A DNA stretch of 52,253 nt from Dehalococcoidia bacterium (GTDB lineage Bacteria; Chloroflexota; Dehalococcoidia; GIF9; AB-539-J10). Positions 23,567 through 38,014 of the stretch are shown here, in pieces. Both the position numbers and the translations under genes were made by a program. The notes beneath the pieces were generated by a model. The model was not told where the DNA came from. It saw only the letters and a list, made by a program, of their open reading frames with translations, and ran no database searches. The DNA is taken from positions 1 to 52,253 of the forward strand of contig JBEKTM010000002.1 in the NCBI GenBank assembly GCA_049516035.1, given 5' to 3'. Each line of letters opens with the position of its first letter. Within the stretch, counting starts at the first letter, position 1.

Positions 23567-23726
23567 TTTTTACTCTTTTTTCCTCCTTGTTTTGATTTTT
23601 TTGGAGCTTAGCTCCAGTAAGCTAGTTTATAGGTATATTATAGTGTAACCCTGTCTCACCTCCTTTACTGTTTTAGATTTAGCTCCAGTAATTCATCGCA
23701 TCTGGATAGTATTGAATATACTACTA

Positions 23727-23755
23727 ATACTACAGTGCAATCGCATCGGCGTCAA
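23727..23755 (-). promoter_or_regulatory. Pilin promoter
   Basis: TTGACG-17bp-TAGTAT. Confidence 0.55.
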
Positions 23756-23820
23756 TCACCCATTAGTCATAGGAAGACGGTACCAGCCCCAGCACGCCTC
23801 CCCACCGCAAATGCCAAATG

Positions 23821-24268: not shown

Positions 24269-24335
24269 CCCATTGGTTACATTCCAAACATACGGTGCTC
24301 TGTAATTAGTAAGGGAATCTTCTGAATGCTGAATT

Positions 24336-24437
<102 letters not shown>

Positions 24438-25805
24438 CTACACTTGACTGACCTCGAAGACTCTTATTCCCTGGCGGTGAGCAAACTGCCTGCCTTCCTT
24501 GGTGAGTCCGGGAACAGCGATAAAGACCTTGTCCAGAATACCGGCATCGTAAGCCTTGTCGTCGAAGTTAAATACCTTATCCAATCCCGTGGGCTTCTCA
24601 GCCACCTCAATGCCAATAGCAATATGATGAGTAATGATGCCCTCGTCCTTGGTAGCCAGTATGTCTATATTGTGGGCAGCGCCGGAGCGGCCTTTGATTT
24701 CAGCCTTTTCCTTTACTCTATAGCCTCTTTTCTCCAGGTATTGTATAAGTTGTGATTTGGACTTAAATTTGAAAGGCTCCTCGGCTGTTTCCGGCATTGG
24801 TTGAGGATTGCCTACCAGCACTATCTCCAGGTCTTTGGGTTCCAGCACCTTTATCCTCTGGTAGCTGGCAAATTTCTTCGCCTCTTCGACTAACTCGGGG
24901 ATGACAATCAGTATTTTATTGTGGATGCCGCTATCGTAGGCTTTGACATCAAAATCCAGTACCTTGTCCAGTCCTATCCTATCCCTGGCAATTGCAATCC
25001 CGATAGCGACAGTATGGGTAACGATGCCGTCATCTCTGGTAGCCAGTATGTCCACGATATGTTCTGCCCCTGACCTTCCCTGTGTTCTGGCATTCTCTGT
25101 TACTTTGTAGCCGAGCTGCCTCAGGAATTTGACGAACCGCACTTTAGGCTGAAGTTCAAATTCCATCCAGTTTCTCTTCGATTCATTAAAGTTATATGCG
25201 TAGATAACTACCTCGTCAACCTCATCCTCGGTGGCCAGCGAGGAGCATTTCAGACAGCGCCACTTTAGAAAGGGCACGGTAAATATCTCGCTGCAATCAC
25301 GGCACTTGTATAACACTCCCTGGCTCCGGTAATCGGTGCCCACAGTCCGCAACTCCATTTTACATCTGGGGCATACATATTTACCCCTGGCTATGGCTGT
25401 AAATTCGTCTTCGACTCCGACATAGTTGCAGGCAAGGTGCTCCAGGATTCGGCCCCGGGTAATATATCCTGAGCTACATTTAGGGCAGTGGCTGCTTGGT
25501 CTTAAATGTGGCGACTGGCACCGGCGACAACGGATGAGCCTGTCGAAGAAAGTCTTGGTCACGATATCTTTAGCAGCCAGGGATTCCAAAATTGCTACTG
25601 CTTCCTTGCCTTTGACCTTTATTGTTTGGTCAACGACTGGATAGGTGAAGCCCAGCTCAGTTGAAAAATCATACTGGGGTTTAATATCAGTAATCCTCCC
25701 TGCCAGCATTTCGGCTATCAATTTTATAACTGTCTCACTAAGTGCCATGCCGCTTACGACTTGTGGGTATTCTGCTACTTTTGCCGCCTTATCGACTTCT
25801 GCCAT
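24438..25805 (-). CDS. TackOD1-like multi-Zn-ribbon protein with two C-terminal degenerate REase-fold domains
   Basis: CRRC, CPKC, HLAC, CPRC, CRDC, CLKC with 'GTDY'; two 'GRSG..H..DILA...KAYD.G' repeats. Confidence 0.75.
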   Translation of the reverse strand: MAEVDKAAKVAEYPQVVSGMALSETVIKLIAEMLAGRITDIKPQYDFSTELGFTYPVVDQTIKVKGKEAVAILESLAAKDIVTKTFFDRLIRCRRCQSPHLRPSSHCPKCSSGYITRGRILEHLACNYVGVEDEFTAIARGKYVCPRCKMELRTVGTDYRSQGVLYKCRDCSEIFTVPFLKWRCLKCSSLATEDEVDEVVIYAYNFNESKRNWMEFELQPKVRFVKFLRQLGYKVTENARTQGRSGAEHIVDILATRDDGIVTHTVAIGIAIARDRIGLDKVLDFDVKAYDSGIHNKILIVIPELVEEAKKFASYQRIKVLEPKDLEIVLVGNPQPMPETAEEPFKFKSKSQLIQYLEKRGYRVKEKAEIKGRSGAAHNIDILATKDEGIITHHIAIGIEVAEKPTGLDKVFNFDDKAYDAGILDKVFIAVPGLTKEGRQFAHRQGIRVFEVSQV

Positions 25806-25832
25806 ATCTTGCCTCCGTTTACGTAGTTAGAA

Positions 25833-25863
25833 AAAGTATAATTCGCAATAGTGCGGAAGTCAA
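25833..25863 (-). promoter_or_regulatory. Promoter homologous to the pilB promoter
   Basis: TTGACT-17bp-TATACT. Confidence 0.65.
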
Positions 25864-26167
25864 TGAGAGAAAGGTACTGGTAGAGTACCATTTTGAAGGG
25901 AGGTGACTAAATGTGGAGAGAAGTTGGACAATTTGATATGACTTAAGGAATAGTTGTTTGCCTACTCACCTATCGCTGGCAACTGTCATGGAGACTCCGC
26001 AACTCGGAACATTAAACCTATAAAGCAAGCTATTATGATGGCCTTTACAAGTATATTAATTACAAACTGTACGTCCCAAAAGCCGATAATCGTTGCTACT
26101 ATCCCCACTCCACCTAGTATATAAGCCAGAGCTTTTCCCATACAACATTACCTCTTTGTCTTGGGCG

Positions 26168-26341
26168 TCACTCAGGGTTGCCCCAATATGTAGGTTTCTT
26201 CCATTCAGAGGCTTCTCCAGCCACTATAACTTCATATTTGCCCTCTGGATGGATCATTTTTGTGACATAACCCAGCCGCCTCATTTCCAGTTGATATTGT
26301 ATCGCCTCACCTTTGTCGTAAAATGTTATCTTTTTGACCAT
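26168..26341 (-). CDS. Small hypothetical protein (57 aa)
   Basis: MVKKITFYDKGEAIQYQLEMRRLGYVTKMIHPEGKYEVIVAGEASEWKKPTYWGNPE; GAAGG RBS and TTGACA-17-AATAAT upstream. Confidence 0.45.
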   Translation of the reverse strand: MVKKITFYDKGEAIQYQLEMRRLGYVTKMIHPEGKYEVIVAGEASEWKKPTYWGNPE

Positions 26342-26463
26342 ATTTGCCTTCTCTTAACTTATTATTGTTCTAGTCTGGTAATTTGTCAATATGTATTGGA
26401 AGGACTGGTCAATCCTAGCTTCAAAATGTTAAGCAAAGTGTTAAGCAACGAAGGGACGTTTAC

Positions 26464-26546
26464 TGCCGAGGGAGGGACTCGAACCCACACTCCCTTACAG
26501 GAAGCGGATTTTAAGTCCGCCGCGTCTACCATTCCGCCACCTCGGC
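26464..26546 (-). tRNA. tRNA-Leu(TAA)
   Basis: GCCGAGG acceptor, GCGGA-CT-TAA-AA-TCCGC, long variable arm, GGTTCGAGTCC. Confidence 0.95.
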
Positions 26547-26567
26547 TTGGTAATCGATAAGTGAAGA

Positions 26568-26640
26568 AGGCGGCGGGCGGATTCGAACCGCCGTATCGGG
26601 GTTTTGCAGACCCCTGCCTTAACCTCTTGGCTACACCGCC
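26568..26640 (-). tRNA. tRNA-Cys(GCA)
   Basis: GGGGT-CT-GCA-AA-ACCCC; GGTTCGAATCC. Confidence 0.95.
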
Positions 26641-26657
26641 GCGGCTACCAAATTCAC

Positions 26658-26732
26658 TGGAGCGGAAGACGGGATTCGAACCCGCGACCTCCTCCTTGGC
26701 AAGGAGGCGTTCTACCGCTGAACTACTTCCGC
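26658..26732 (-). tRNA. tRNA-Gly(GCC)
   Basis: CCTCC-TT-GCC-AA-GGAGG; encoded CCA. Confidence 0.95.
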
Positions 26733-26792
26733 TCTAAGTAGATTTTAACGCCTTTTTTTACGCTCCGCAAGCCAATGCAGTGGTTCACACAA

Positions 26793-26985
26793 CTAGTGAC
26801 ATCTCTTTTTTGTCATTGCGAGAAGCGGGATTCCTCGCTTGCGCTTCGGAACAGGCTACGCAATCCCGGTGAGGTGCAATATGATTGCCACGCCCCGACA
26901 GGTCGGGGCTCGCAATGACAGACACGTTATTTTATCCAACATTACAAACATACGAAGTGTCACTCGTCTATCTGAACTAAATCAG
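26793..26985 (-). repeat. Composite MITE-like element, copy 2 (inverted)
   Basis: Reverse complement nearly identical to 38062-38254. Confidence 0.8.
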
Positions 26986-26992
26986 TCAATCA

Positions 26993-27079
26993 TGGTGCCG
27001 AGGGGGAGATTTGAACTCCCACGGGCTTGCGCCCACCACCCCCTCAAGATGGCGTGTCTGCCTATTCCACCACCTCGGC
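26993..27079 (-). tRNA. tRNA-Leu(GAG)
   Basis: CCATC-TT-GAG-GG-GGTGG; CCA end. Confidence 0.95.
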
Positions 27080-27131
27080 TCAATACTCCTGAAAAACCTC
27101 GTTTTCCAAGGGATACCAAATTTAGCTTTTC

Positions 27132-27209
27132 TGGCAGGGGCGGCAGGACTCGAACCCGCGACCTGCGGTTTTGGAGACCGCTGCTCTAGCCAAACTGAGC
27201 TACGCCCCT
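27132..27209 (-). tRNA. tRNA-Trp(CCA)
   Basis: GCGGT-CT-CCA-AA-ACCGC; CCA end. Confidence 0.95.
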
Positions 27210-27234
27210 TAAATCAGCGTAATTATATCAAAAA

Positions 27235-27308
27235 TACCCCTGGGGCGACTCGAACGCCCGACACGCGGTTTAGGAAACCGCTGCTCTATCCATCTGAGCT
27301 ACAGGGGC
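27235..27308 (-). tRNA. tRNA-Arg(CCT), integration target
   Basis: GCGGT-TT-CCT-AA-ACCGC; GTTCGAGTC. Confidence 0.93.
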
Positions 27309-27310
27309 AC
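27270..27310. repeat. att core, integrase-proximal
   Basis: TTAGGAAACCGCTGCTCTATCCATCTGAGCTACAGGGGCAC. Confidence 0.92.
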
Positions 27311-27371
27311 AAGCTAATTTTAAGGCATTACTAGACATAATCGGGGGGATTGACGTTAAATTGCCGTTATT

Positions 27372-28517
27372 TTATTTTTCACTGGCACTTTTCCCAGGCG
27401 GCAACACTTCATCCAGTAATGCCATAGCTTCCGATTGCATCCCTTCAATTATATGTGAGTAAGTATCCATTGTAAAGGCTACGCTAGAATGTCCTAGAGC
27501 TTCAGAGATAACCTTTGGCTTGGCCCCGCGTAGTAACATGAGGCTGGCGAAGGTATGACGTAAATCATGGAAGCGGACATTCTTTAGCCCAGCTCTTTTT
27601 GCCAGCCTGGCGAAGTTGTGACTCAACACACCCGGATCAATGGGCTCACCTTCTGCATTAGAAAATACCAGATCATCGAGTTTAGGCAATCTTCCTAAAT
27701 GTAAGAATAGGGATTCCCTCTCCCCTTTGTATTCTGTCAGGTAGTTAGCCAGTTTAGACATCATATTAACATTGCGCCGACTGTGCTCTGTCTTGGGTTC
27801 TTTGAACTCAATCACCCCATGCCTTTTATAGAGTGTTTGACAAACCGATATCGATTTTGATTCAAGGTCAACGTCTCGCCATCTTAAGCCTAGTAATTCA
27901 GCCTGTCTGAGACCACTACTGACCGCGGTATAAATTACTGGGTAGTATTGATTGTCCTCAGCCATTTTTAGAAGGACTTCGGCTTCAGCTGGGGTTAGGG
28001 TCCGCATTCTCCGTTTTATTTGCTTTAGCGAACCTTTGATATCTACCAACTCACAAGGGTTGCGGGCCAAAATCCCAAGACGGCAAGCATATTTCAAAGC
28101 TTGGGACAATACCCGGTGTTGGTGGTGAACTGTCCTGGGCGATAGTGTTTCTCTGGCTTTACTGTAATAGCGTTCTATCATCTGATGGTCAAGATGTTTC
28201 AACTGGACAAGGCCCAGGTTTGGTATCAAGTGGTGCTCTATAATTGACTGGTAGCCATCTTGTGTTCTCGGTGAGCAATTGGTTTTGACATACCCACTAA
28301 GCCAGTTGCGAAGATGCTCCGCCACTGTGATACGTCCGCGAGGGGGACAGACACCTTTATCAAGACTGGATAATAGCTCGGTCAACCGTCTCTGCGCATC
28401 ACCCTTGCGGCCTCGTATTGTTTCAAAGTGACGCTTTCGTTTGCCGTCTGGTCCTGCGCCGGTATAGATTTGAATTTGCCAGCCGTTTTTGCCTCTTTGC
28501 CTTATTGATCCTCTCAT
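27372..28517 (-). CDS. int: Tyrosine integrase
   Basis: 'SGLRQAELLGLRW', 'KEPKT', 'RFHDLRHT', 'LGHSS...T.DTYSH'. Confidence 0.96.
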   Translation of the reverse strand: MRGSIRQRGKNGWQIQIYTGAGPDGKRKRHFETIRGRKGDAQRRLTELLSSLDKGVCPPRGRITVAEHLRNWLSGYVKTNCSPRTQDGYQSIIEHHLIPNLGLVQLKHLDHQMIERYYSKARETLSPRTVHHQHRVLSQALKYACRLGILARNPCELVDIKGSLKQIKRRMRTLTPAEAEVLLKMAEDNQYYPVIYTAVSSGLRQAELLGLRWRDVDLESKSISVCQTLYKRHGVIEFKEPKTEHSRRNVNMMSKLANYLTEYKGERESLFLHLGRLPKLDDLVFSNAEGEPIDPGVLSHNFARLAKRAGLKNVRFHDLRHTFASLMLLRGAKPKVISEALGHSSVAFTMDTYSHIIEGMQSEAMALLDEVLPPGKSASEK

Positions 28518-29161
28518 TTTGACCTGCCTCTCTTTTGTTTCTTTTTCTTTATCCCCTCTCTTACCTGGTCAACACCGTCCTTAATTCCCCTCTCTGTATC
28601 TTCCCGTGTCTCTGCTAGTAGCCATAGAAATGACTCAAAACCAGATATCGCCACTGGTAGACCCATCAGTGCCCTATCAAGCTCTGTAGAATTGAAAGGA
28701 CGGCTTATAAGTTCAAATATAAGCTCAGTGCGGGCATGACGGGATGCTATAAAGGATAACCTCTTTGTATCCTGTTCAAACATTGATAACCGGGCTGTCC
28801 ATTTTGCCTCACGGATGGTAAAGGTATCACCCCTCGAAATTCTGGACTTCCACACTTTGAACAATACCTCGAGTGCTTCTGGGGTAGGAGGCTCAATTTT
28901 TAACTCAGGATACTTATTAATCTCTGCCGTACTCCAAGGTTCATCTTCAGGGCTAGGATTAGCCATGTTCCTCCTAACTTCAGCTAAACTCTTTTGAACG
29001 GTGCTTAAGCTAGGCCACCCTTTAGGTAGCTTACGATTATTTTTACGAATAGTCCCTTCCACTATGTTACGTATCCCTGGTGCTTTCCACTTGGGATGTT
29101 TCATATAGATGGATGTTATTAGGGCTTCGACTTCTGGTGTTACAATTGGGCCTTTTGCCAT
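28514..29161 (-). CDS. Hypothetical protein with N-terminal HTH-like segment, candidate repressor
   Basis: 'LITSIYMKHPKWKAPGI...PSLSTVQKSL' resembles transposase-type HTH; coupled to int. Confidence 0.5.
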   Translation of the reverse strand: MAKGPIVTPEVEALITSIYMKHPKWKAPGIRNIVEGTIRKNNRKLPKGWPSLSTVQKSLAEVRRNMANPSPEDEPWSTAEINKYPELKIEPPTPEALEVLFKVWKSRISRGDTFTIREAKWTARLSMFEQDTKRLSFIASRHARTELIFELISRPFNSTELDRALMGLPVAISGFESFLWLLAETREDTERGIKDGVDQVREGIKKKKQKRGRSK

Positions 29162-29267
29162 TTTCCCTTCCTTCCTGCATATCTACTTATTATAGCTAAT
29201 TTTCTTACTTGTCTATGTCATATGCTAAATTCTAGCTTACCCATATCCATACTAGCTTTGCAATAAC

Positions 29268-29326
29268 TTGACGCTAGATTGTCCCACTTTTATACTTATT
29301 ATAGAAATAATCTGTTTCATTGTCAA
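29268..29326. promoter_or_regulatory. Interlocked divergent promoters
   Basis: Plus: TTGACG-17-TATACT (29268-29296). Minus: TTGACA-17-TATAAT (29298-29326). Confidence 0.75.
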
Positions 29327-29455
29327 ATTTCACTGCCAAGGGAGGCTATTGGAACCAGAGCGAATAGTCTATGACAGGAGACACCTACCGGATTATAAAC
29401 CAGGGCAGCCTGGATGGTAAGGTAGAAAGACCTTAAGGAACACAATGGAGGGCAA

Positions 29456-29677
29456 ATGGTAAAAACGAATTGTCTAAGGAAAATGCGGAAACTTCAGAAG
29501 ATGGCCTTGCTGGAGCTTTCAACGAAAAGTGGGATTTCTACGCCTACCCTCGTGGCGATTGAACTCTATCAGCATTATCCTACACCTAACATCCGCAGCC
29601 GACTTGTAACTACCTTAGGCATCTCTGAGAACGTGATCTGGCCTGTCTTAGGAAATAATGATGATAATGGGAAATGA
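29456..29677 (+). CDS. Cro/XRE-like HTH protein
   Basis: 'LRKMRKLQKMALLELSTKSGISTPTLVAIE...P'. Confidence 0.72.
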   Translation: MVKTNCLRKMRKLQKMALLELSTKSGISTPTLVAIELYQHYPTPNIRSRLVTTLGISENVIWPVLGNNDDNGK

Positions 29678-29864
29678 CGAACGGCTGACCTACGATGTTA
29701 AAACGGCGGCCAAATTATTGGGCCTATCAAAGAATAGTGCATATCAGGCGTGTCTCACCGGGGAGATACCACACCTGAAAATCGGCAAGCGAATCCTAAT
29801 TCCTAGGGCACGATTGGAGCAGATGCTTAACGAGGCCGGGAAGGCAAAGGACCAAGATGGCTAA
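29658..29864 (+). CDS. Excisionase-like HTH protein
   Basis: 'TYDVKTAAKLLGLSKNSAYQAC..GEIPHLKIGKRILIPR'. Confidence 0.85.
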   Translation: MMIMGNDERLTYDVKTAAKLLGLSKNSAYQACLTGEIPHLKIGKRILIPRARLEQMLNEAGKAKDQDG

Positions 29865-30588
29865 TCCCCAGCTTGAAAACGGGCATACCCGGATAGCGAA
29901 TGAACTAATGGAGCAGTTGATGAAGCTCTACTTGGCGCCTAATCAGTGGCAGGTGCTTGTCTGTATTATCCGCAAGACCTATGGCTTCCATAAGAAGATT
30001 GACTATATTACAAACACTCAAATATGCGAGGGAACGGGATTAGTCAAATCTACTGTCTCCCGGGCCGTGACCGTATTGACACAAAGAAACATCATCACCC
30101 GGAATGGTAAACATATTGGGTTACAAAAGGACTGGGAACAGTGGCAAAAGTTAGCGGAACGGGCAACAAAAGTTAGCGAAGCTGCTAACTGTGTTGATGG
30201 TGAAAAGTTAGCAATCCCGCAACCAGAGTTAGCAGTTACGCAACCAGAGTTAGCAGATAGGGCAACAAAAGTTAGCAGTTCACTCGACACACAAAAGGAA
30301 GATACTATTCAAAAGAAACTATCCAAAAGAAAATACGGAGAATTTCAAAATGTTCTTTTAACTGATGAGGGATACCAGAAGCTCAAGGATAGGCTCAACA
30401 CTAAAGCTGATGAGTTTATTGAAAAGCTATCTGCCTACATGAAATCTACTGGCAAATGCTACAAAGACCATTACGCAACAATCCTAAACTGGTCCCGAAG
30501 AGAAAAGGAGGGCAAAGGTGCAACGATTAGAAATTCCAGAGAGCTACCGAAAACCTATACAGAATCGCCAGACTATGCCGATCTCTGA
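29857..30588 (+). CDS. Phage replication initiator (lambda O-like)
   Basis: 'MANPQLENGHTRIANEL...IIRKTYGFHKK.D.I'; internal iterons. Confidence 0.88.
   Translation: MANPQLENGHTRIANELMEQLMKLYLAPNQWQVLVCIIRKTYGFHKKIDYITNTQICEGTGLVKSTVSRAVTVLTQRNIITRNGKHIGLQKDWEQWQKLAERATKVSEAANCVDGEKLAIPQPELAVTQPELADRATKVSSSLDTQKEDTIQKKLSKRKYGEFQNVLLTDEGYQKLKDRLNTKADEFIEKLSAYMKSTGKCYKDHYATILNWSRREKEGKGATIRNSRELPKTYTESPDYADL
30146..30276 (+). repeat. Iterons, putative origin
   Basis: AGTTAGC at 30149, 30171, 30206, 30227, 30248 and 30270. Confidence 0.8.
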
Positions 30589-31321
30589 GGACGAACTTAA
30601 AACATTTGAAATAGAGTGGGAAAGGGCACCGTATAAGCCATTATTTAGTTGTCCTCAATGTAACGGTGGCGGCTTTCTTCACCCGCGGAAGCCTGACGGC
30701 TCAGTGGATTACACAGAGGTGATCCCCTGTAACCAGCCTGGCTGTTATGCGGACAGCTTCGGGGCTTATGAAAGAGGGGAGATTATTCAACAGAGTGGGG
30801 TCATAGGCTTGCAGCAGACCTTTGAGACATTCAATGCCAAGGTCCCGGGCGTGCAGAAAGCCTATAACGCAGCAAGGAAGATCGCAGATGGTGAGGGTGA
30901 TTTCATTTGGTTGATTATCTATGGAGGCGTGGGCAATGGCAAGACTCACCTTTTGAACGCCATCGCTAACCGGGCGATGGAACGCGGTTGCCAAGTCAAG
31001 TCAATTATGATGGCTGAATTACTTTCAGAGCTTCGTATGTCCATCGAAACCAATCAAGTTGACTTCAAAATGAAGCAGCTTAAGGAAGTGCCTTATCTCT
31101 TAATTGACGAGCTCGGGCTGGAATATGGCACAGACTGGGAGAGGGAAAAGATAGAGGAGTTACTAGCGTCCCGGTGGGCCAGAGGACGATTTACTATCGT
31201 GGCGACTAATAGGGATATAGGGGAACTACCGGAGAGAATTAAGAGCCGATTTAAGGATCAGCATTTGTCTCGCTGGACTAAGAATGAGGCAGAAGACTTC
31301 AGATTAAGGAGGGAGAGATAA
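30575..31321 (+). CDS. DnaC/IstB-like helicase loader ATPase
   Basis: CPQC...PC..PGC, 'TFETF', GGVGNGKTHL, 'LLIDELG', 'IVATN', 'RIKSR'. Confidence 0.9.
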   Translation: MPISEDELKTFEIEWERAPYKPLFSCPQCNGGGFLHPRKPDGSVDYTEVIPCNQPGCYADSFGAYERGEIIQQSGVIGLQQTFETFNAKVPGVQKAYNAARKIADGEGDFIWLIIYGGVGNGKTHLLNAIANRAMERGCQVKSIMMAELLSELRMSIETNQVDFKMKQLKEVPYLLIDELGLEYGTDWEREKIEELLASRWARGRFTIVATNRDIGELPERIKSRFKDQHLSRWTKNEAEDFRLRRER

Positions 31322-31468
31322 AAGAAAGCAGGCAAAGTGTCCATTTTCTGAAAAATAACGGCAATCGTAACGCCAAGTTAGCTTTAAACTATGGCCTGAC
31401 TACGAATGAAAGCACAGGTTTACTAGTTCTATGACTGGTAAAAAATACAATAGTTGGAGGTAAAAAGT

Positions 31469-31807
31469 ATGAGTGAAAAAAGTAATATCCCTACTAAAAT
31501 CCCAATCGACCTGGACGGGCGCCGCCGGTACTTCCACTTGGGTTTGCTGGCGATAGCTCTTTGGGAACTCAACACCGGTAAGCCCTTGTTTTCTAAAAAA
31601 GGCTGGGACCACTTCTCTAAGAAAGATATGTTTCTGATGATATGGGCCTGTCTCCGAGAAGATGACCCTAAGCTAAAGCCCCAGGATGTAGTTCAAATGT
31701 TTAAGGATAACAAAATTCCCTCGGGGGCAGTGCTTCAGGACTTTATCCAGCAATTAAGTGCTGCCTGGGGAGCTATATTAGATAGTTTTGCGGGAGGTGA
31801 AAAATGA
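31469..31807 (+). CDS. Putative tail assembly chaperone
   Basis: 'IPIDLDGRRRY...WELNTGK...MIWACL..DDPKL'; directly upstream of and overlapping the tape measure gene; GGAGG RBS. Confidence 0.55.
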   Translation: MSEKSNIPTKIPIDLDGRRRYFHLGLLAIALWELNTGKPLFSKKGWDHFSKKDMFLMIWACLREDDPKLKPQDVVQMFKDNKIPSGAVLQDFIQQLSAAWGAILDSFAGGEK

Positions 31808-33105
31808 TTTCCGTAGGTGACTGTATACTGAAGCTAGGTTTAGACAAGACCGATTTTGACGAGTCCATGAAGCAAATCCAAACAGCGTTCGGTAACCTTG
31901 GCAAAACGATGCTCATTGCTGGTACCGCCATAGTAGGGGGGCTTGTTGGTTCAACTGTAGCCGCTGCTCAACTCGGAACTGAAATAGAGCAGATGTCCAT
32001 TCGGACAGGTATTAGCACTGTCGCATTGTCCGAGCTCCGCTATATGGCCCAACTGTCAGGGACATCCTTTGAAGGGTTGGAAATGGGTATCAAGCGAATG
32101 CAGGTGACTCTCGTGGAAGCTTCTAATGGCTCAAAGACAGCAACGGATACACTTAAGAGAATGGGCTTATCTATTACAGATTTAATGGCCTTATCCCCAG
32201 GGGATCAATTTTATGCAATAGCTGGGGCAATCGCCAGCATTCCAGACCCAACAGTTCGAGCAGCTACCGCGGTCGAAGTCTTTGGAAGGTCAGGCACGGA
32301 TTTGCTTCCTATAATGAAGGATGGGGCTAAGGGAATGGAAGATATGAAGAATCAAGCCCATGAATACGGGGAAATCATTGATACCGAGGCAGCTACGAAA
32401 TCAGTGGGCTTTACGACAGCCCTGACTAACCTGAAGGAAAGTCTTGGCAATGTAAAGGATGCTATAGGGAAAGACTTAATGCCGATGTTAACTGACCTTC
32501 TGAATAATAAGATAATCCCGTTAGTCAAGGCTTGTGGCGACTGGATTCAAAAACATAAAGACCTCTTAGAAGCTTTGCTGAAAATAGGTGGAGTTCTTAT
32601 GGTTGGAGGTATCATATTGGTTGGACTTTCTAATCTTGCGCAGGCCATCATAGCCATAGACGCTGCCTTGATTATCCTACAAGGCATAGCTGGTCCCGCG
32701 GGCTGGGTCAAACTAGCCGTAGGAATAGGAATAGCAGTGGCTGCAATAGTAGGCCTTTCTAAGTTAATGAACTCCGTGACTGGTAACTTTGAAGCGCCTA
32801 CAGTCAATGTCTCGATGCCTGCGATTCCAGAGATACCTTCAGCTCAATTCGGTGGTATTGTACCCGGACCTATAGGCCAGCCAGTACCTATCATAGCTCA
32901 CGGAGGAGAGCCGTTTTTGGGAGTTCAGAATATAGGGAGACCAATGGGAAATAATATTACTATCAATCTTGGCGTTCTCCCTGGAGATGATGCGACTGCC
33001 AGGAAAGTGGTTCGTGCTATCAGAGGTGCCTTCGGAGAGGATAAGCGACGCAATTCCTTCGCTCAGCTTAATAAGGGATATTATTACGGGAGCAGTGGCA
33101 GATGA
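31804..33105 (+). CDS. Short tail tape-measure-like protein (433 aa)
   Basis: 'VGDCILKLGLD', helical core 'AVEVFGRSGTDLLP', hydrophobic segment, C-terminal 'GGIVPGP...AHGGE'. Confidence 0.8.
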   Translation: MISVGDCILKLGLDKTDFDESMKQIQTAFGNLGKTMLIAGTAIVGGLVGSTVAAAQLGTEIEQMSIRTGISTVALSELRYMAQLSGTSFEGLEMGIKRMQVTLVEASNGSKTATDTLKRMGLSITDLMALSPGDQFYAIAGAIASIPDPTVRAATAVEVFGRSGTDLLPIMKDGAKGMEDMKNQAHEYGEIIDTEAATKSVGFTTALTNLKESLGNVKDAIGKDLMPMLTDLLNNKIIPLVKACGDWIQKHKDLLEALLKIGGVLMVGGIILVGLSNLAQAIIAIDAALIILQGIAGPAGWVKLAVGIGIAVAAIVGLSKLMNSVTGNFEAPTVNVSMPAIPEIPSAQFGGIVPGPIGQPVPIIAHGGEPFLGVQNIGRPMGNNITINLGVLPGDDATARKVVRAIRGAFGEDKRRNSFAQLNKGYYYGSSGR

Positions 33106-33136
33106 AATTTGAGGTGACAATTTACAGGAGGTAAAA

Positions 33137-33439
33137 ATGAGGTTAAAAGTATTTAAACTAAAGGACGGCAAACTGATATATGCGGGTATCCGGGAAGTCC
33201 GAGAGGGTGACGCTATTCTGGACGGTGACACTTCCATGTCCGAGGTTAACCTTAAAGAATCCAGAGACATAAACGCTGAGATTCTTAAAAACCTGAGCGG
33301 TCAGGAAAAAGATGACCTGAAACAGGGTTTACGTAATTTAGGAATGAGGGATCCAGAGGCTTTCGAGGCTTTAAAAAAGAGCTTCGAGACATTAGGGCTT
33401 TCACCCAAGGCTGCCGAAATAGCAGCAAGGGGACGATAG
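33137..33439 (+). CDS. Hypothetical protein, possible scaffold-like C-terminus
   Basis: AGGAGG RBS; ends 'LGLSPKAAEIAARGR'. Confidence 0.6.
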   Translation: MRLKVFKLKDGKLIYAGIREVREGDAILDGDTSMSEVNLKESRDINAEILKNLSGQEKDDLKQGLRNLGMRDPEAFEALKKSFETLGLSPKAAEIAARGR

Positions 33440-33444
33440 AACAT

Positions 33445-33527
33445 GGTCCCTGGTGGTAGTTTGGTAACAAGGGCGTGGTCATCTTCTAGTTCCTGCGCCC
33501 TAACCTCCTTGACTGCCACTAGGGGCC
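33445..33527 (+). ncRNA. Structured RNA hairpin (candidate)
   Basis: 16-bp stem with three G-U pairs, inner 9-bp stem, ACCTCCTT bulge. Confidence 0.5.
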
Positions 33528-33553
33528 GCCAAAATAAAATTTAAGAGGTGAAA

Positions 33554-34303
33554 ATGGCAACAATAACAGAGCTACAAAAAAAGGTAGTCAAAGCACTAGA
33601 GACGGGACAAGACCCGGCACCTATCCTGAAGGAATTGGCCGAGTTAAGGACTTCGATTGCTATGGAAGCTGAAAAGGCGGAGCTTCAAAAGATAGTAGAT
33701 AAACGAAAGGCATTACAAGACAGGGCAGAGGAAGTTAAGGCTAAAATCCAAAAACAGAATGAGGCTATAGACACCCTTTTGAAGGCGCGGGACAGCATAG
33801 TCGAGGCATTATTGCCTATAGTGAACAAAGCCAAGGAGCTACCAAACTTACATGATAAGTGCTTTGAGGAGTTCCATGATGGCGTACAGGCTGGATATAT
33901 CACCCATGCAGCGGGGGGATTCCTGCCAGCTGATTTAACAATCCCTATGCTTCAATTAGGGAACGGTGAAAGAGATATCCATGCTGTCTCTAAGGAAGCT
34001 GTTATGTATCTTTATAATGCCTATGGGCTACTGGCAAATCTCCAGAAGATAGAAACCAAGCCACAGCAGCCTTCAATAGATCCCGAGCTTGATTTTGGCG
34101 ATGACCATTCCGAGATAACCGAGGCTAATTGCCTGGTATGCACTCATAAAGATGTAGAGGCTATTAACAAGGGCTTAAAAGAAGGCAGGCCCCTGCGAGA
34201 CTTGGAGGCCGCGTTTAATGTCTCCCGAAGTACACTTTCCAGGCATAAAAATCATTGCCTTGATTTATCCGCTATAAGAATAACGGAGCCAATTAGTGCC
34301 TAA
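33554..34303 (+). CDS. Coiled-coil protein with C-terminal CxxC-HTH domain
   Basis: Helical N-terminus; 'CLVCTH...VSRSTLSRHKNHC'. Confidence 0.65.
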   Translation: MATITELQKKVVKALETGQDPAPILKELAELRTSIAMEAEKAELQKIVDKRKALQDRAEEVKAKIQKQNEAIDTLLKARDSIVEALLPIVNKAKELPNLHDKCFEEFHDGVQAGYITHAAGGFLPADLTIPMLQLGNGERDIHAVSKEAVMYLYNAYGLLANLQKIETKPQQPSIDPELDFGDDHSEITEANCLVCTHKDVEAINKGLKEGRPLRDLEAAFNVSRSTLSRHKNHCLDLSAIRITEPISA

Positions 34304-34784
34304 ATCTTGTCCCGTGTGCGTGCATCCTGAGAGACAGGAAATTGAAAAGACTCTCCTGGGAAGTGCAAAGTTGCCTGATATTGCACAACGCTTTGCATTA
34401 TCGAGGTGGAGTCTTTATCGCCATAAGCAAAGACATTTACCAGGGCAGTTAAAGAAGGCTCAGGATATCAAGGAGAAGGCACAAGCTGATTCTCTCCTGA
34501 GACAAATACTATATCTTCAGTCCAGAGCACTAACTATTCTAAAAAAGGCTGAGCAAACAGGGGAACTAAAGACAGCGCTGATAGCTATACGAGAGGCCAG
34601 AGGGAACCTAGAATTGCTGGCAAAGTTACAAGGGGACTTGGCCCAAGAAGGGACTGTCAATATAGTTCTATCGCCAGCATGGGTATCATTGCGAACTATC
34701 ATATTGCAAACACTAGAACCTTACCCTGAAGCTAGGCTGAAAATAGGTCAGGCATTAGGTGAGGTTGACCATGCTGGCAGTTGA
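34296..34784 (+). CDS. Putative terminase small subunit
   Basis: 'CPVCVHPER..IE...IAQRF.LS...LYRHK..H' plus helical region; directly upstream of TerL. Confidence 0.65.
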   Translation: MPKSCPVCVHPERQEIEKTLLGSAKLPDIAQRFALSRWSLYRHKQRHLPGQLKKAQDIKEKAQADSLLRQILYLQSRALTILKKAEQTGELKTALIAIREARGNLELLAKLQGDLAQEGTVNIVLSPAWVSLRTIILQTLEPYPEARLKIGQALGEVDHAGS

Positions 34785-35523
34785 TTTGAGATATGCCCTT
34801 GATCCCGCCTGTTTCGCCAGGGAAGCATTAAACTTCAATCCTGATTCATGGCAAGAGCGGGCATTACGCTGGAGTGGAAGGCGCTTACTGCTTAATTGCT
34901 GCCGGCAGAGCGGCAAGTCCACAACGGCAGCTATTCTAGGGCTACACCGGGCTTTATTCTACCCTGGCAGCTTGGTATTGCTGATATCCCCTTCCCTGAG
35001 GCAATCAAGTGAGCTATTTCGCAAGGTGAGTGACCATCTTGATAGATTAGCCTTACCACCGCGCAAGATTGAAGATAACAAACTGTCAGCCACCTTTGCC
35101 AATAGTAGCCGCATTGTATCCTTACCCTCTACTGAGACTACTATCAGAGGCTTTAGTGGAGCTTCATTGATTATAGAAGATGAAGCAGCCAGGGTACCCG
35201 ATGAACTGTATATTGCGGTTCGTCCTATGATGGCAGTAAGCGGAGGACGGCTGATCCTCTTATCAACGCCATTCGGCAAACGAGGTCACTTCTTTAAGGA
35301 ATATTCAGAGGGAGGCCATGACTGGGAGCGAATACGAATACCCGCTACTGAGTGCCCCCGGATAACAGAGGGATTCCTACAAGAGGAAAGGGCAAGCCTG
35401 GGTGACTGGTGGTATAAACAGGAATATATGTGTGAATTTGTGGAGACAGTTGACCAAGTATTTCCTTATGACCAAGTGATGAATACCCTATCAGATGATA
35501 TTAAACCGCTGTTTGGAGGCTAA
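34771..35523 (+). CDS. Terminase large subunit, ATPase half
   Basis: 'PDSWQ', 'CCRQSGKST', 'LIIEDEAA', 'LLSTP.GKRG.F', 'QEYMCEF'. Confidence 0.88.
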   Translation: MLAVDLRYALDPACFAREALNFNPDSWQERALRWSGRRLLLNCCRQSGKSTTAAILGLHRALFYPGSLVLLISPSLRQSSELFRKVSDHLDRLALPPRKIEDNKLSATFANSSRIVSLPSTETTIRGFSGASLIIEDEAARVPDELYIAVRPMMAVSGGRLILLSTPFGKRGHFFKEYSEGGHDWERIRIPATECPRITEGFLQEERASLGDWWYKQEYMCEFVETVDQVFPYDQVMNTLSDDIKPLFGG

Positions 35524-35524
35524 A

Positions 35525-36211
35525 ATGACCTTATTTATGGGTTTAGACTTGGGACAGGCTCAAGACTACACAGCATTATCAGTTGTGGAAGCTCAGCCTA
35601 CAAAAAAGAAATACTGGGGAAATGGCTACGAACCAATACGTGAAATAGAAGGCTTGCCAGTATCCTTTAATGTTCGTCATCTGCAAAGGTACACATTGGG
35701 GACAAGTTATCCTATCATAATTGAAGATGTAGTTAGTAAGATTAAACAGTTTGAAGGAACTGTGCTGGCAATAGATCATACCGGGGTAGGACGGCCTGTT
35801 TTTGACCTCTTTGAGAGAGCGGGCTTACATCCTCTTGGTATTACCATAACCGGCAGCGATATGGCTCATGGCGAAGGTAGACAGTGGCGAGTGCCCAAGC
35901 GTGACCTGGTGGGAGTTCTACAGGTGGCAGTTCAAGGCAATCGGCTAAAGGTAGCAAAGGAATTACCAGATGCCACTACCTTAGTAAATGAGTTGCTAAA
36001 CTTCCGCGTAAAGATAAACCTCAAAACGGCCCATGATAGTTATGAGGCATGGCGCGAGGGTGTACATGATGACTTGGTATTGAGTGTTGCCCTGGCTTGT
36101 TGGGCAGCCACACAATTTTATACTTCCTGGGAACAGTCTGCCGGTCTCTCTATTATTCAGCAAAAGCTAGATAATGAATTTGAGGGAATAATGCGAGGTG
36201 TGGAATTGTGA
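35525..36211 (+). CDS. Terminase large subunit, nuclease half
   Basis: 'GLDLGQAQDYTAL', 'IDHTGVG', 'HDDLVLSVALA'; own GGAGG RBS. Confidence 0.85.
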   Translation: MTLFMGLDLGQAQDYTALSVVEAQPTKKKYWGNGYEPIREIEGLPVSFNVRHLQRYTLGTSYPIIIEDVVSKIKQFEGTVLAIDHTGVGRPVFDLFERAGLHPLGITITGSDMAHGEGRQWRVPKRDLVGVLQVAVQGNRLKVAKELPDATTLVNELLNFRVKINLKTAHDSYEAWREGVHDDLVLSVALACWAATQFYTSWEQSAGLSIIQQKLDNEFEGIMRGVEL

Positions 36212-36359
36212 CCCTATTAAATCTGGTGCCATGGCCAATGTGGTAAAAGGGGAAACAGGGGCAACCTTGAGCCTCTCAGAGCCCTCTCCATAGAAAAGGG
36301 GCACCAGAGATATTATCCTCCAGCACCCCCTCTAGTGCCCAGGCTGCCAGTAACCCTAA

Positions 36360-36647
36360 CTAGCTGCCGCTAGAATTAAGGTCATGGTTTAATCCGGCTA
36401 AATAGCCATGATAAAAGTCATAGCCGCTAGTATTCCAGTCTCCCATGTCGACATCGAATTCCCTCTTTTTGAGCATAGATAGCAGATAGGATTTTGTAGC
36501 CTCCCTAGCTTCAGCCTTCTGCTCGGAGCTTTCAGGTCTTAGGTCATCATCTGCACCTATCCCCATGTCCTCAAAGAGTGGGTCAATAAGCGCGGGAGTA
36601 GCCGGGTCCTCTGCGTTCCAAACTAATTTAGTTACCATTTGATTCAT
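36360..36647 (-). CDS. Acidic hypothetical protein
   Basis: 95-aa ORF with AAGGAGG RBS. Confidence 0.55.
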   Translation of the reverse strand: MNQMVTKLVWNAEDPATPALIDPLFEDMGIGADDDLRPESSEQKAEAREATKSYLLSMLKKREFDVDMGDWNTSGYDFYHGYLAGLNHDLNSSGS

Positions 36648-36787
36648 CCTCCTTTTCTATTATATTTCGCTCTTGCTTTTCATTCCCCTACAAGCTACAA
36701 TAAAAGTAGCTGAGGGATTCGTGATGGTTTTCCTTGGCTAGTATCCTTGTGGTTCGCCCCAGGGATACTTTTTATTTATCATAAGCA

Positions 36788-36940
36788 TCACCCCCTTTTC
36801 TTAGTGTAAGACAGTTCAAGGACTACCCAGGTATGATCCAACTTCTTGCCCTTGATTCGACCTTCAGCTAATAGCTTCCTTACCCGTTGCTCGGATATGC
36901 CGAGAGACTTGGCTGCTTGCTTAACGCTCCACATCTCCAT
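36788..36940 (-). CDS. Small excisionase/MerR-type HTH protein (50 aa), apparently leaderless
   Basis: MEMWSVKQAAKSLGISEQRVRKLLAEGRIKGKKLDHTWVV; TTGACA-17-TACAAT ends 6 nt before the ATG. Confidence 0.75.
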   Translation of the reverse strand: MEMWSVKQAAKSLGISEQRVRKLLAEGRIKGKKLDHTWVVLELSYTKKRG

Positions 36941-37063
36941 ATAGTTATTGTAGCGAGCACGCAACAGTTTGTCAAGGGGCTATTTAGCTATAAATTAAAT
37001 ACAAATTCTATAAACCTTGCCAGCCCCAACAAACTTAAGGCAGGCTATCCGGCAGGGAGACCG

Positions 37064-37585
37064 TCAGCGATAAGGATACAGTTGTAGGAGCTGGTACAGT
37101 GGCACATTTACACCTTGTGCCATATATATGCTCACACGTCCCCAATAGTGGTTAGCCAATTCGTCAACAAAGATCCACACCGTGTACTTGGTTTTCGTTT
37201 GTGTATTCTGTACCGTTCCTTCTACAAGCCAGCGAGATTCACCTGCTTCAAGACCAGTCAATGTATCAGGCCCAGTAACCACTTTTGTAGAGCTTAAGCC
37301 TACTCCAACATACTCATTGCCTGTAACATCGTTAAGAAAGTGTATAGCTTCAACCTCAGCCATTGGGCCAGAAACACAGACAACAACCAGAGCTATGACT
37401 ATGATGGCTATAACAATGGCAATTATTACTCCTGCTTTCTTTTTCCTTGTCTTTTGTTGAGGCTCCTGAATATGCTTCTGTCTCTCATCAGGGGTAAATC
37501 CTATCTCAAGCCTCTGGCTACAATCAGGGCAAAGCCAAACGCCCTCATCCACTTCTTTTTTCCCGCAATTAGTACAAAGTGGCAT
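37064..37585 (-). CDS. Zn-ribbon single-pass membrane protein
   Basis: CTNC...CPDC, basic patch, TM 'GVIIAIVIAIIVIALVVV'. Confidence 0.7.
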   Translation of the reverse strand: MPLCTNCGKKEVDEGVWLCPDCSQRLEIGFTPDERQKHIQEPQQKTRKKKAGVIIAIVIAIIVIALVVVCVSGPMAEVEAIHFLNDVTGNEYVGVGLSSTKVVTGPDTLTGLEAGESRWLVEGTVQNTQTKTKYTVWIFVDELANHYWGRVSIYMAQGVNVPLYQLLQLYPYR

Positions 37586-37862
37586 AACTTCACTTCTTGT
37601 CCTTTTAATACATCATATGAGAATTGAGAGGAACAGTCAATACGCCTCAAAAATGCATTGAGTTGTGGCGATACAATGCCCTGCCCTTTGTTTTTGCCGT
37701 TAGTTTCAAATCAAAACTCAAAAATTGGCGTTATTTTGGCGTTAGATTGCTTGGTATTGGCTGGGACATAAAAGGACTTGATGAGCAAAACAAGGTTTTG
37801 GCAATTAATACAAGTGTTCTATTTTGTATGTAAAGGGATTCTTTGGGACATGTGGCTTAGAA

Positions 37863-37903
37863 TTAGGAAACCGCTGCTCTATCCATCTGAGCTACAGGGG
37901 CAC
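37863..37903 (-). repeat. att core, distal; 5' half-fragment of tRNA-Arg
   Basis: Identical to 27270-27310; stops at the anticodon loop. Confidence 0.92.
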
Positions 37904-37938: not shown

Positions 37939-38014
37939 TGGTGGAGATAGGGGGATTCGAACCCCCGACCCCTGCGATGCGAACGCAGTGCTCTCCCAAC
38001 TGAGCTATATCCCC
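37939..38014 (-). tRNA. tRNA-Ala(CGC)
   Basis: G3:U70 pair, CTGCG-TT-CGC-AT-CGCAG, CCA end. Confidence 0.95.

Follow-up and report, generated by a model that had tools for sequence, protein, structure and literature searches.

A 10.6-kb tRNA-Arg element with tape measure and terminase genes in a Dehalococcoidia genome: a candidate helper-dependent phage satellite

In the window, by which we mean the whole stretch of 52,253 nucleotides of Dehalococcoidia DNA that was analysed, the tRNA-Arg(CCT) gene on the minus strand (27234-27309) contains an insertion of 10,593 bp (~10.6 kb), which is bounded by a direct repeat of 41 nt with 100% identity. The left copy of this core (attL, 27270-27310) is the 5' half of the tRNA gene and the right copy (attR) is located at 37863-37903. 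The insertion is precise within the 5' half, and the core copy provided by the element itself restores the tRNA gene. The site was examined at 19 loci of the same genus around the tRNA cluster, 13 of which have an unoccupied tRNA-Arg site: in seven of them window position 27310 joins 37863 directly and the 40-41-nt core is present once, and in the other six a tRNA-Ala gene lies within ~300 nt of tRNA-Arg. One locus carries an integrase remnant at the tRNA-Arg site and five are uninformative due to a contig end or the lack of a match. For this comparison attL, attR and one empty site were aligned together. The GC content of the element (0.44-0.48) is no different from that of the flanks. The perfect repeat and the unoccupied sites confirm the existence of the att-bounded element of 10.6 kb that the original prediction had proposed.

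The left end of the element encodes an intact tyrosine integrase of 381 aa (27372-28517, minus strand; PF00589 1e-26), which overlaps by 4 nt with orf215 (28514-29161, minus strand). The latter had no match in Pfam, PHROG or the Atlas and is, from its position, a possible regulator; a sigma-70-like site (12/12) is located upstream of it at 29326-29298. On the other side of this divergent promoter region, the plus strand encodes a small regulator of the Cro/CI-type HTH family (73 aa, 29456-29677; PF01381 3e-5), followed by an excisionase-like HTH_17 protein of 68 aa (29658-29864; PF12728 1e-12, phrog_66 and phrog_12527). The replicon consists of a lambda O-like replication initiator of 243 aa (29857-30588, plus strand; PF04492 1e-26, phrog_277 4e-34), whose gene contains an iteron cluster at about 30149-30276 (repeat families D5, D9, D11 and D19), and a DnaC/IstB-like helicase loader of 267 aa (30518-31321, plus strand; phrog_50 3e-38, PF00308, PF01695).

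The rightward block continues with a tightly coupled series of genes for a tail assembly chaperone (TAC)-like protein, a tape measure protein (TMP), two proteins of unknown function, a TerS-like protein and the ATPase and nuclease of a large terminase (TerL). The TAC-like protein has 112 aa when translated from the ATG behind a GGAGG motif (31469-31807, plus strand), and its stop overlaps the TMP start. Its position, its weak profile matches (phrog_2115 1.6e-6; PF11836 9.5e-4, below the cut-off) and BFVD fold matches with E values of 2e-3 to 5e-2, most of them to proteins annotated as tail assembly chaperone, point weakly to moderately to a chaperone. Homologues are found upstream of the TMP gene in six further loci, and the -1 frameshift extension (T) usual for such chaperones was not detected, as there is neither room nor an ORF for one. 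The TMP itself (433 aa, 31804-33105, plus strand; phrog_8462 2e-33) matched 26 PHROG families, and 18 of the 25 listed families are annotated as tape measure. It has 59 homologues with a best identity of 60%, and 22 of them align end to end (alignment A1). The profile match, the position behind the TAC-like gene and the family-conserved length identify it as a tape measure. The phage homologues have a length of 395-478 aa and belong, as native TMPs, to ordinary tail modules; one of them, with 58% identity, is located between TAC-size and distal tail-size ORFs in phage locus L033. The protein had been regarded as a mini tape measure that rebuilds a shorter helper tail. As the closest homologues are of the same length, the TMP is full length for its family and a shortened tail finds no support.

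The TerS-like protein (orf162; 162 aa, 34296-34784, plus strand) is assigned by position only, directly upstream of TerL, where homologues are conserved in 29 loci. Profile searches gave no family match; the predicted model is all-helical with long helices and an N-terminal HTH (pLDDT 87) and had no significant match in the PDB. In Thermus phage Riverbug, the depositors gave the name TerS to a different gene, on the downstream side of TerL, and annotated the homologue of orf162 as hypothetical. TerL is encoded by two ORFs, an ATPase of 254 aa (34759-35523, plus strand; phrog_7579 2e-61, PF03237 2e-12) and an RNase H-like nuclease of ~228 aa from the ATG at 35525 (35525-36211, plus strand; phrog_27743 1.5e-38, weak PF17289). 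The ATPase stop codon ends 1 nt before the nuclease start, which has a GGAGG motif 5 nt upstream. All invariant columns of the respective alignments are retained, including GK(S/T) and DE in the ATPase (A2) and D18, D94, D192 and D193 in the nuclease (A3), which we take to be the catalytic motifs of TerL. Both halves lie in different open frames in all 65 viral records that contain them, and so the split is native to this clade and not a sign of damage; in most of these records a portal-sized ORF comes next. The ATPase reaches a best identity of 67% to any relative, and a search with the element TerL gave no match in 100 related genomes. With regard to the predicted full terminase, the presence of both catalytic domains holds true, with the qualifications that TerL is divided and that TerS is a positional assignment.

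Two ORFs of the plus strand separate TMP from orf162. No family match was obtained for orf100 (33137-33439), and orf251 (33548-34303) has weak HTH matches. The N-terminal part of orf251 is a coiled coil, and its C-terminal Cys-rich/HTH segment is similar to the N-terminus of orf162. In four other loci, the TerS-like genes match residues 194-240 of orf251. The right end is formed by two ORFs of the minus strand: orf95 (36360-36647), which is weakly similar to an ORF at the same end of a sibling element (L259, see below; 26% identity, 5e-7), and orf173 (37064-37585), with weak matches to PHROGs of unknown function, an N-terminal Cys-rich segment and a subsequent hydrophobic stretch. The first 50 aa of orf173 are 52% identical to an ORF of a decayed element on contig C20, and the gene is possibly cargo.

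Pfam and PHROG profile searches of all element ORFs of at least 65 aa matched no portal, capsid, tube, baseplate or lysis family, nor any connector or scaffold family; tblastn with the capsid protein of a sibling (L270) found nothing in the element at E <=1, and no capsid-size redirection gene was recognised. The unassigned ORFs range from 95 to 251 aa. This is less than a portal requires, and it does not exceed the ~270 aa that are the usual minimum of an HK97-type capsid protein. With its 10.6 kb and no match for capsid, portal, tail tube, distal tail or lysis genes the element is not a complete temperate siphophage. Neighbouring genes overlap or are separated by short gaps, every gene has a GGAGG motif of its own, and those with homologues are all full length, without truncation or frameshift. 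The gene content of the original prediction was thereby largely recovered, with profile matches for the integrase, the excisionase, the O-like initiator, the DnaC-like loader, TMP and TerL, and the description as tightly coupled, uninterrupted ORFs lacking recognisable head, tail tube, baseplate and lysis genes proved correct. Elsewhere in the assembly, contig C3 shows a weak capsid-like match of 32%.

The element is unique among the 101 related genomes searched and has no close relative over its whole length, and decayed integrase remnants of related elements are present in the same genome and in one relative. A search for syntenic elements elsewhere revealed two metagenomic tRNA-Arg elements of similar size which share integrase, excisionase and TMP. 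L259 is a 9,578-bp element in tRNA-Arg(CCT), bounded by the same 40-41-nt core, with integrase (71% identity), excisionase, an AAA_25 RepA-like protein and TMP (47%), and no terminase or capsid gene was detected in it by BLAST. L270 (~9.4 kb) is located at tRNA-Arg(TCT) with an 18-nt repeat and encodes integrase (68%), excisionase, TAC (30%), TMP (41%), RepA and an HK97 capsid protein. The excisionase-like genes of the siblings are 35-42% identical to that of the element. Two partial siblings (L327 and L288) were also found, and in L288 an orf251 homologue (48% identity) is located behind TMP. TMP is constant in the four tRNA-Arg elements seen, two of which have a recognisable TAC-like gene. 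We conclude that the element is one of a modular tRNA-Arg set of ~9-11 kb, in which the second module is absent, an HK97 capsid gene or a terminase.

The terminase module also occurs in 11 small viral contigs, which encode a primase and the split TerL, in nine cases together with a recognisable TerS-like gene. None of them matched portal or capsid seeds; their annotation is incomplete and covers ten ORFs in four contigs, one or two in five and none in two. Identical ends of 32-127 nt are present in five of the 11 contigs, and IMG/VR flags two of these five as direct terminal repeats; identical ends are an assembly proxy for circularity and not a proof of it. TMP is encoded by four of the 11, in one of them (L168) directly upstream of TerS. 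Together with the siblings of similar size, these shared modules show that the element is not a one-off prophage deletion, the case that had been named as contrary to a distinct satellite type.

We consider it reasonably likely that the element is an integrated, helper-dependent phage satellite, and it is probably still mobile. It combines integrase, excisionase and its own O-like and DnaC-like replicon with an incomplete virion gene set. Such a satellite would excise and replicate upon induction of, or infection by, a helper siphophage; its terminase would recognise the element DNA and fill procapsids made by the helper, and its TAC and TMP would seed tails from helper tube and tip proteins, which would result in particles with the satellite TMP. 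Due to the normal length of this protein for its phage family, a role in compatibility or DNA delivery seems more likely than an altered tail length, and it is conceivable, for example, that the satellite TMP allows entry where a resident phage blocks the TMP of the helper. The element and the similar small elements suggest a little-known kind of virus parasite. Two checks that had been proposed gave negative results. No helper was identified; related TMPs are present in five phage records, none of which contains a related TerL, so that no known phage matches both modules. The single public DNA run that holds the element, which is probably its own source, gave no sign of excision or replication: the contig depth of 13 equals that of the flanks (13.2-13.7) and no empty-site or circle joint was reported.

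These two negative results, the latter from one run, would also fit a defective prophage remnant whose integrase, replication, TAC/TMP and terminase genes survived deletions and rearrangement but no longer have a role in transfer. The uniqueness of the element and the decayed integrase remnants, which show that decay occurs in this lineage, point in the same direction. We nevertheless regard a remnant as improbable, as the genes are intact compared with their homologues, the att repeats show no mismatch, the backbone recurs in independent siblings of 9.4-9.6 kb and the same terminase module is found in small contigs with identical ends. In addition, the gene order Rep, TAC-TMP, TerS-TerL could not, as we infer, arise from the usual prophage order by one deletion. 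Slightly less probable still is an integrative island whose phage-derived genes act mainly against infecting phages, with spread in virions being secondary or absent. Here, a decoy TMP or TAC would poison tail assembly and the foreign terminase would cut phage DNA or compete for it. Island-encoded interference with tail assembly is described in the available part of PMC11364771, satellites generally interfere with their helpers, and the TMPs of sibling and analogous elements vary widely in length, from 413 to 1310 aa. However, a TerS-like protein, TerL ATPase and nuclease, an own replicon and integrase with excisionase are just what self-packaging needs.

The missing virion parts could also be encoded by the same genome, in a two-part system in which a gene cluster on contig C7 supplies portal, capsid and some tail proteins and the element contributes terminase, TAC and TMP. 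The only portal and the only strong capsid match of the assembly are indeed on C7 (phrog_64 2e-34 and phrog_212 2e-51), its only TerL and only TMP belong to the element, and a scan of 20 C7 ORFs matched no terminase or TMP family. Three relatives have a syntenic cluster and 18 of the 52 genomes of the genus carry its capsid gene, but the 17 other genomes with this gene do not contain the element, and a PF03237-type TerL and an A1-type TMP are restricted to two and three of the 52 genomes, respectively. Moreover, the assembly is 85% complete, and the C7 cluster could be a relic or rely on proteins that escaped recognition. We therefore rate this arrangement as the least probable of the three and prefer the helper-dependent satellite.

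Compared with known satellites, the element resembles the phage-inducible chromosomal islands (PICIs) of the SaPI type in its att-bounded size of ~10 kb, the integrase at one end, the divergent regulatory region, an own replicon, a packaging gene block and the absence of lysis genes. Classical PICIs carry TerS only, use the TerL of the helper and have no tail genes, whereas this element has two TerL genes, a TAC-like gene and, as a structural gene, TMP. By a definition that limits the packaging module to TerS or none and excludes phage structural genes, it is not a classical PICI. In capsid-forming PICIs (cf-PICIs), genes for capsid, portal, protease and head-tail connectors are present and the tails alone are taken from the helper, as far as described in the available text of 10.1101/2022.09.08.507074. 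They have a complete terminase of their own and obtain the remaining virion parts from a helper, as the element with its TerS-like and TerL genes would also do; in contrast to them, no capsid, portal, protease or connector family was matched here, and a tail gene is present instead.

A precedent for a satellite TMP is provided by the EPIPs of Mycolicibacterium, small satellites with TMP and TerS for which tail hijacking by TMP was proposed and tails longer than those of the helper were reported (PMC12822802). The sections of this paper available to us describe a serine integrase, head-to-tail adaptor, stopper and scaffold and no TerL in EPIPs, whereas the element has a tyrosine recombinase (PF00589), TerL and a TAC-like gene and matched no connector or scaffold family. 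In the same sections, satellites are said to lack TMPs, with the exception of PLE11, for which a preprint proposed a TMP-like protein, and the earlier statement that Vibrio PLEs carry TAC and TMP was therefore too strong. The sibling L270 with RepA and an HK97 capsid gene resembles the small HK97 "twilight-zone" entities, metagenomic contigs of <=20 kb in which terminal repeats, integrase and RepA are accompanied by an incomplete set of morphogenesis genes and which their authors discuss as possible satellites (PMC13669383). In the portion of that work available, these have capsid and scaffold genes and lack terminase, portal and tail genes, with one TMP noted; the element is the reverse, with terminase and TMP and no capsid gene. 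The nearest cultured terminases are those of Thermus phage Riverbug and the Meiothermus phages MMP7 and MMP17, with a TerL ATPase identity of 48-49% and an orf162 homologue directly upstream of TerL as in the element, but these are complete phages of 33-34 kb in which TerL is a single ORF of 415-417 aa and the portal and head genes come after it.

The element at 27270-37903 is bounded by a 41-nt direct repeat of 100% identity (27270-27310 and 37863-37903). The left copy corresponds to the 5' half of tRNA-Arg(CCT) (27234-27309, minus strand), with which a run of six tRNA genes begins, and tRNA-Ala(CGC) is located just past the right copy. A survey of 19 same-genus loci around this tRNA cluster revealed direct passage from 27310 to 37863 with a single core in seven loci and a tRNA-Ala at most about 300 nt from tRNA-Arg in six further ones; one locus retains an integrase remnant at the site and five were uninformative. 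The alignment of attL, attR and the empty site showed the recombinant pattern as expected. Repeat, empty sites and recombinant alignment therefore identify the 10,593-bp stretch enclosed by the two copies as a precise insertion. The element is a real feature, and its GC content is not distinct from that of the flanks. The tRNA run extends over 26464-27309 and 37939-38014, all on the minus strand, and the element splits tRNA-Ala from Arg-Trp-Leu-Gly-Cys-Leu. The 5' half of tRNA-Arg is now supplied by the element, with the integrase gene immediately upstream on the same strand, and the downstream tRNAs may now be driven by read-through from the element.

The assembly to which the window belongs as contig C2 comprises 1.72 Mb in 139 contigs and is 85% complete and 2% contaminated. 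Among the public sequencing runs listed, the element was present in one DNA run, a peat metagenome from which the assembly probably derives, and in no RNA run. In this run the element forms a single 10,613-bp contig, which ends inside the repeats like a break in a 31-mer graph, and its depth (13) equals that of the flanks. The contigs of this single run contained neither an empty-site nor a circle joint. The att-bounded insertion of the original prediction stands. Decayed relatives of the integrase, reduced to the last 43-59 codons (77-78% identical), were detected next to tRNA-Thr(CGT) on contig C20 of the same assembly (~5,800-11,640, L153) and next to the tRNA cluster in the related genome G028 (contig C40, 3266-3442, L154); an ORF on C20 has an N-terminus 52% identical to orf173 of the element. 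A minus-strand gene just outside the tRNA cluster (24438-25805) encodes 455 aa, in which a TackOD1 domain (9e-38) and a restriction endonuclease domain of the Mrr type (3e-9) were recognised.

The leftward arm consists of a tyrosine integrase (381 aa) and a 215-aa protein (orf215), whose genes overlap by 4 nt. The 295-bp region between the arms contains sigma-70-like sites with 12/12 matches leftward and 10/12 rightward; over the whole element, sites of this kind are not more numerous than in shuffled sequence. The rightward arm encodes a Cro/CI-type HTH protein, an HTH_17 excisionase-like protein, a lambda-O-like initiator and a DnaC/IstB-like loader. The initiator gene carries repeats at about 30149-30276 (D5, D9, D11, D19), and the direct-repeat families in this stretch are built on AGTTAGC; lambda-type origins lie inside the O initiator gene. 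There follow a gene resembling a tail assembly chaperone (TAC-like, most likely 112 aa, ATG at 31469 with GGAGG ahead), the 433-aa tape measure protein (TMP, 31804-33105), which starts at an ATG overlapping the stop codon of the TAC-like gene, orf100, orf251 (33548-34303), the TerS-like orf162 (162 aa, 34296-34784), a 254-aa TerL ATPase gene and a TerL nuclease gene. Two small leftward genes, orf95 and orf173, occupy the right end. A short frame between the DnaC-like and TAC-like genes (31291-31425, plus strand) has a counterpart in the sibling element L259, a 65-aa ORF in the corresponding position just before the TMP block (53% identity over 45 aa); the frame may represent a small late-gene regulator. 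Searches of the element ORFs for portal, capsid, protease, connector, tube, distal tail and lysis families returned no match, in agreement with the earlier statement that no portal, capsid, tube or lysis gene is recognisable. The unassigned ORFs span 95-251 aa, and the ESM Atlas gave no usable match for orf215 or orf251.

Of the 26 PHROG families matched by the TMP, 25 were listed, and 18 of these are annotated as tape measure. We identified 59 homologues, the closest ten of which have 395-478 aa, are 44-60% identical and cover 75-100% of the protein (seven of them 99-100%); the alignment runs end to end and includes the conserved C-terminal motif. A 58%-identical TMP is found on a 22.8-kb phage contig (L033) in an ordinary tail module, flanked by ORFs of TAC size on one side and of distal-tail size on the other, and L258 and L260 show the same setting. 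Homologue lengths and ordinary tail modules indicate that 433 aa is typical of the family and not shortened, and the term mini tape measure in the original prediction is therefore not appropriate. Synteny across 80 viral loci with a related TMP was limited to TAC and TMP, and a TMP profile scan of genome contigs gave 24 loci, all weak or motif-only. G049, from the same genus, carries a TMP relative with a TAC-like gene on a 6.2-kb contig (C101, 1-1678; L340). This TMP is 52% identical to that of the window and 62% to that of L259, and the tRNA-Arg site of G049, located on a different contig, looks unoccupied. The TAC-like gene itself has weak profile support, and homologues are located upstream of TMP in several loci. 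Its predicted fold matched BFVD entries (E 2e-3 to 5e-2, TM 0.46-0.66), mostly named tail assembly chaperone or PF11836-type "tail tube", and no PDB fold at E <= 0.001; a frameshift extension was not found, and the predicted TAC-TMP complex reached a median score of 0.23 against a mark of 0.32.

The two TerL genes (34759-36211) adjoin closely: the ATPase stop codon (35521-35523) sits between a GGAGG motif (35515-35519) and the nuclease ATG at 35525. By this layout, the junction reads as translational coupling of two genes and not as a broken frame. The nearest cultured relatives, Thermus phage Riverbug and Meiothermus phages MMP7 and MMP17, are 48-49% identical in the ATPase half and encode TerL as a single ORF of 415-417 aa. 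Separate ORFs for the halves were present in 11 of the first 16 viral loci examined. Both halves were found in 65 of 85 viral records, always in different open frames and with a spacing from overlap to 2.6 kb, and the remaining 20 records matched the ATPase half only. At the far end of this range, L188, L209, L213, L215, L220 and L223 have their halves 1.6-2.6 kb apart with other ORFs between. A portal-sized ORF (430-735 aa) lies downstream in most split records, and eight of these ORFs were recovered by portal seeds. Every invariant alignment column of ATPase and nuclease is kept in the window, including the four nuclease aspartates, and together with the split in 65 of 65 records this identifies the split as a lineage trait and not as decay. 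The nuclease half is too variable for a profile scan, and the ATPase query yielded two weak matches among 100 relatives. In 29 loci a homologue of orf162 immediately precedes TerL, and the predicted model of orf162 shows an N-terminal HTH followed by long helices (pLDDT 87). It matched no family and no PDB fold at E <= 0.001, and the TerS label of the Riverbug depositors belongs to a different gene downstream of TerL. The assignment as TerS is thus a weaker call than that of TerL, and the full terminase originally claimed comes down to a motif-complete two-gene TerL and a TerS suggested by position. About 45 residues at the C-terminus of orf251 are similar to the Cys-rich/HTH segment at the N-terminus of TerS-like proteins, including the one encoded next to it, so that the element may have a pair of DNA-recognition proteins of the same type.

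Split TerL genes also occur on eleven small contigs (10.6-17.4 kb; L114, L158, L159, L162, L167, L168, L172, L174, L185, L212 and L219) together with a primase or helicase, and a TerS-like gene is recognisable in nine of them. Five of the eleven have identical ends of 32-127 nt, two of these five being listed in IMG/VR with direct terminal repeats. Portal and capsid seeds gave no match in the eleven; since our own portal, capsid and TMP profiles recovered few members (8, 4 and 4), the lack of a head gene is a weak statement for contigs outside the PHROG scans. These scans covered ten ORFs each of L114, L162, L158 and L159 and one or two ORFs each of five others. The ten ORFs of L114 comprise an integrase, a primase, a TerS-like gene and the split TerL with nothing structural, and those of L162 a helicase, a primase, an unmatched 945-aa protein, an integrase, ParA and a homing endonuclease. 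L158 encodes a primase, an integrase and a 1279-aa TMP, and L159 a primase, an excisionase-like gene and a 1310-aa TMP. In L168 an 805-aa TMP is located directly upstream of TerS, as in the window, with an integrase at the contig end, and in L212 an 835-aa TMP lies downstream of TerL. Head genes are present on two other small contigs: L203 encodes a protease and two capsid proteins, and L196 gave a weak portal match. The small-contig group is therefore heterogeneous.

Scanning metagenome contigs with the TMP profile we identified four loci that share more than TMP (a single-protein TMP scan found no relative). L259 lies in the same tRNA order as in the window, Cys-Gly-Leu-Trp-Arg(CCT), with a core repeat one base shorter and copies 9,578 bp apart. 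It carries a 71%-identical integrase, xis, a 413-aa TMP (47% identical), an orf95-like ORF and an AAA_25 RepA-type protein (Pfam from precomputed domains of homologues), some homologues of which are named Dehalococcoidia or Chloroflexota; a BLAST search found no terminase or capsid gene. L270 adjoins tRNA-Arg(TCT), where two copies of an 18-nt repeat are separated by about 9.4 kb, and encodes an integrase (68%), xis, TAC (30%), a 665-aa TMP (41%), the same RepA as L259 and an HK97 capsid protein (PF05065 on all 120 homologues listed). The partial locus L327 contains xis, a helicase, a capsid-like protein and a 650-aa TMP, and the 2.7-kb fragment L288 contains TAC, TMP and an orf251 homologue (48%). 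A PDB sequence search matched neither the 441-aa protein of L259 nor the 453-aa protein of L270. As read from these protein matches, integrase, xis and TMP form a backbone that recurs at tRNA-Arg, joined by a TAC-like gene in the elements where one was recognised, and the second morphogenesis module varies. The search for syntenic elements that the original prediction proposed thus succeeded for this backbone.

A helper-dependent satellite fits these data much better than a decaying prophage, since the att-bounded insertion is precise with unoccupied sites in relatives, the recombination, regulation and replication set is intact, the morphogenesis genes are full-length, motif-complete and in one coupled block, the gene order does not correspond to any single deletion, and independent elements share size and backbone. 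The latter also argues against a one-off deletion, which the original prediction had named among its refuting conditions. Protein identity to the nearest relatives is 47-71%, at which synonymous sites are probably saturated. In the proposed cycle a helper phage would induce the satellite, which would package itself into helper procapsids, and tails would be seeded on its own TMP. As the TMP has normal length, we favour the hypothesis that it would act in compatibility or DNA delivery, and the shorter helper tail originally envisaged is not supported. The original prediction also proposed to look for helper siphophages with related TMP ends; none of five phage records with a related TMP, one rated complete, has a relative of the TerL ATPase, which indicates that the two modules come from different phage lineages.

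A head-gene cluster on contig C7 (~18,900-27,100; L233, 10968-19052) comprises a portal gene, a 178-aa ORF, the genes of a major capsid protein and an adaptor-like protein, and additional ORFs, among which neither a terminase nor a tape measure was found. The cluster is collinear in three relatives, and 18 of 52 genus genomes have its capsid gene at 56-86% identity, in some cases broken. The TerL and TMP of the element are the only ones in the assembly recognised with PF03237, PF03354, PF10145 and the TMP profile. It is conceivable, if improbable, that Chloroflexota-type hosts carry "pick-and-mix" satellites of about 10 kb and that the element here completes the C7 cluster, which lacks TerL and TMP. 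The morphogenesis genes of each satellite may then be limited to a small set that determines specificity, with a TMP in all cases and, as the second component, a capsid protein or a complete terminase of two genes, and the virus may be split into mobile and vertically inherited parts. The contents of cluster and element are complementary, but they do not co-occur: PF03237 TerL is present in two of the 52 genus genomes and a TMP of this type in three. We keep the functional link solely as the boldest reading.

The classification of satellites follows what they take from the helper, either everything or everything but the capsid. An own packaging enzyme and tape measure with no shell proteins amount to a different division of labour, and the gene set points to terminase and TMP as the parts that set virion specificity. 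The siblings show a modular gene set with TMP as the constant. The host lineage of the window is uncultured and, judging solely by the names given to homologues, appears Dehalococcoidia-like; its mobile elements are poorly known. The large split-TerL clade of uncultured phages and satellites (L114-L230) provides a natural experiment on the assembly of the packaging motor; our literature search for split TerL gave only a paper, in two versions, on jumbo gut phages. A capsid-less satellite with TerL and TMP was not described in the literature found, and comparable elements may be found in the supplements to PMC12822802 and PMC13669383. IME1 of Dehalococcoides was considered and rejected, as the accessible part of its description gives 21-28 kb and no tailed-phage genes (10.64898/2026.09.15.751708). 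The layout of the element is like that of PICIs, from which it differs in TerL and TMP, and it differs from cf-PICIs in capsid and portal. The small HK97 "twilight-zone" entities, as far as the accessible text describes them, resemble the sibling L270 and not the element of the window (PMC13669383). The nearest published idea are EPIPs, satellites with a TMP, which according to the accessible part of the article differ in the recombinase, the presence of connector genes and the absence of TerL (PMC12822802). Together with EPIPs, TMP-based tail hijacking would be a recurrent strategy in unrelated bacterial phyla.
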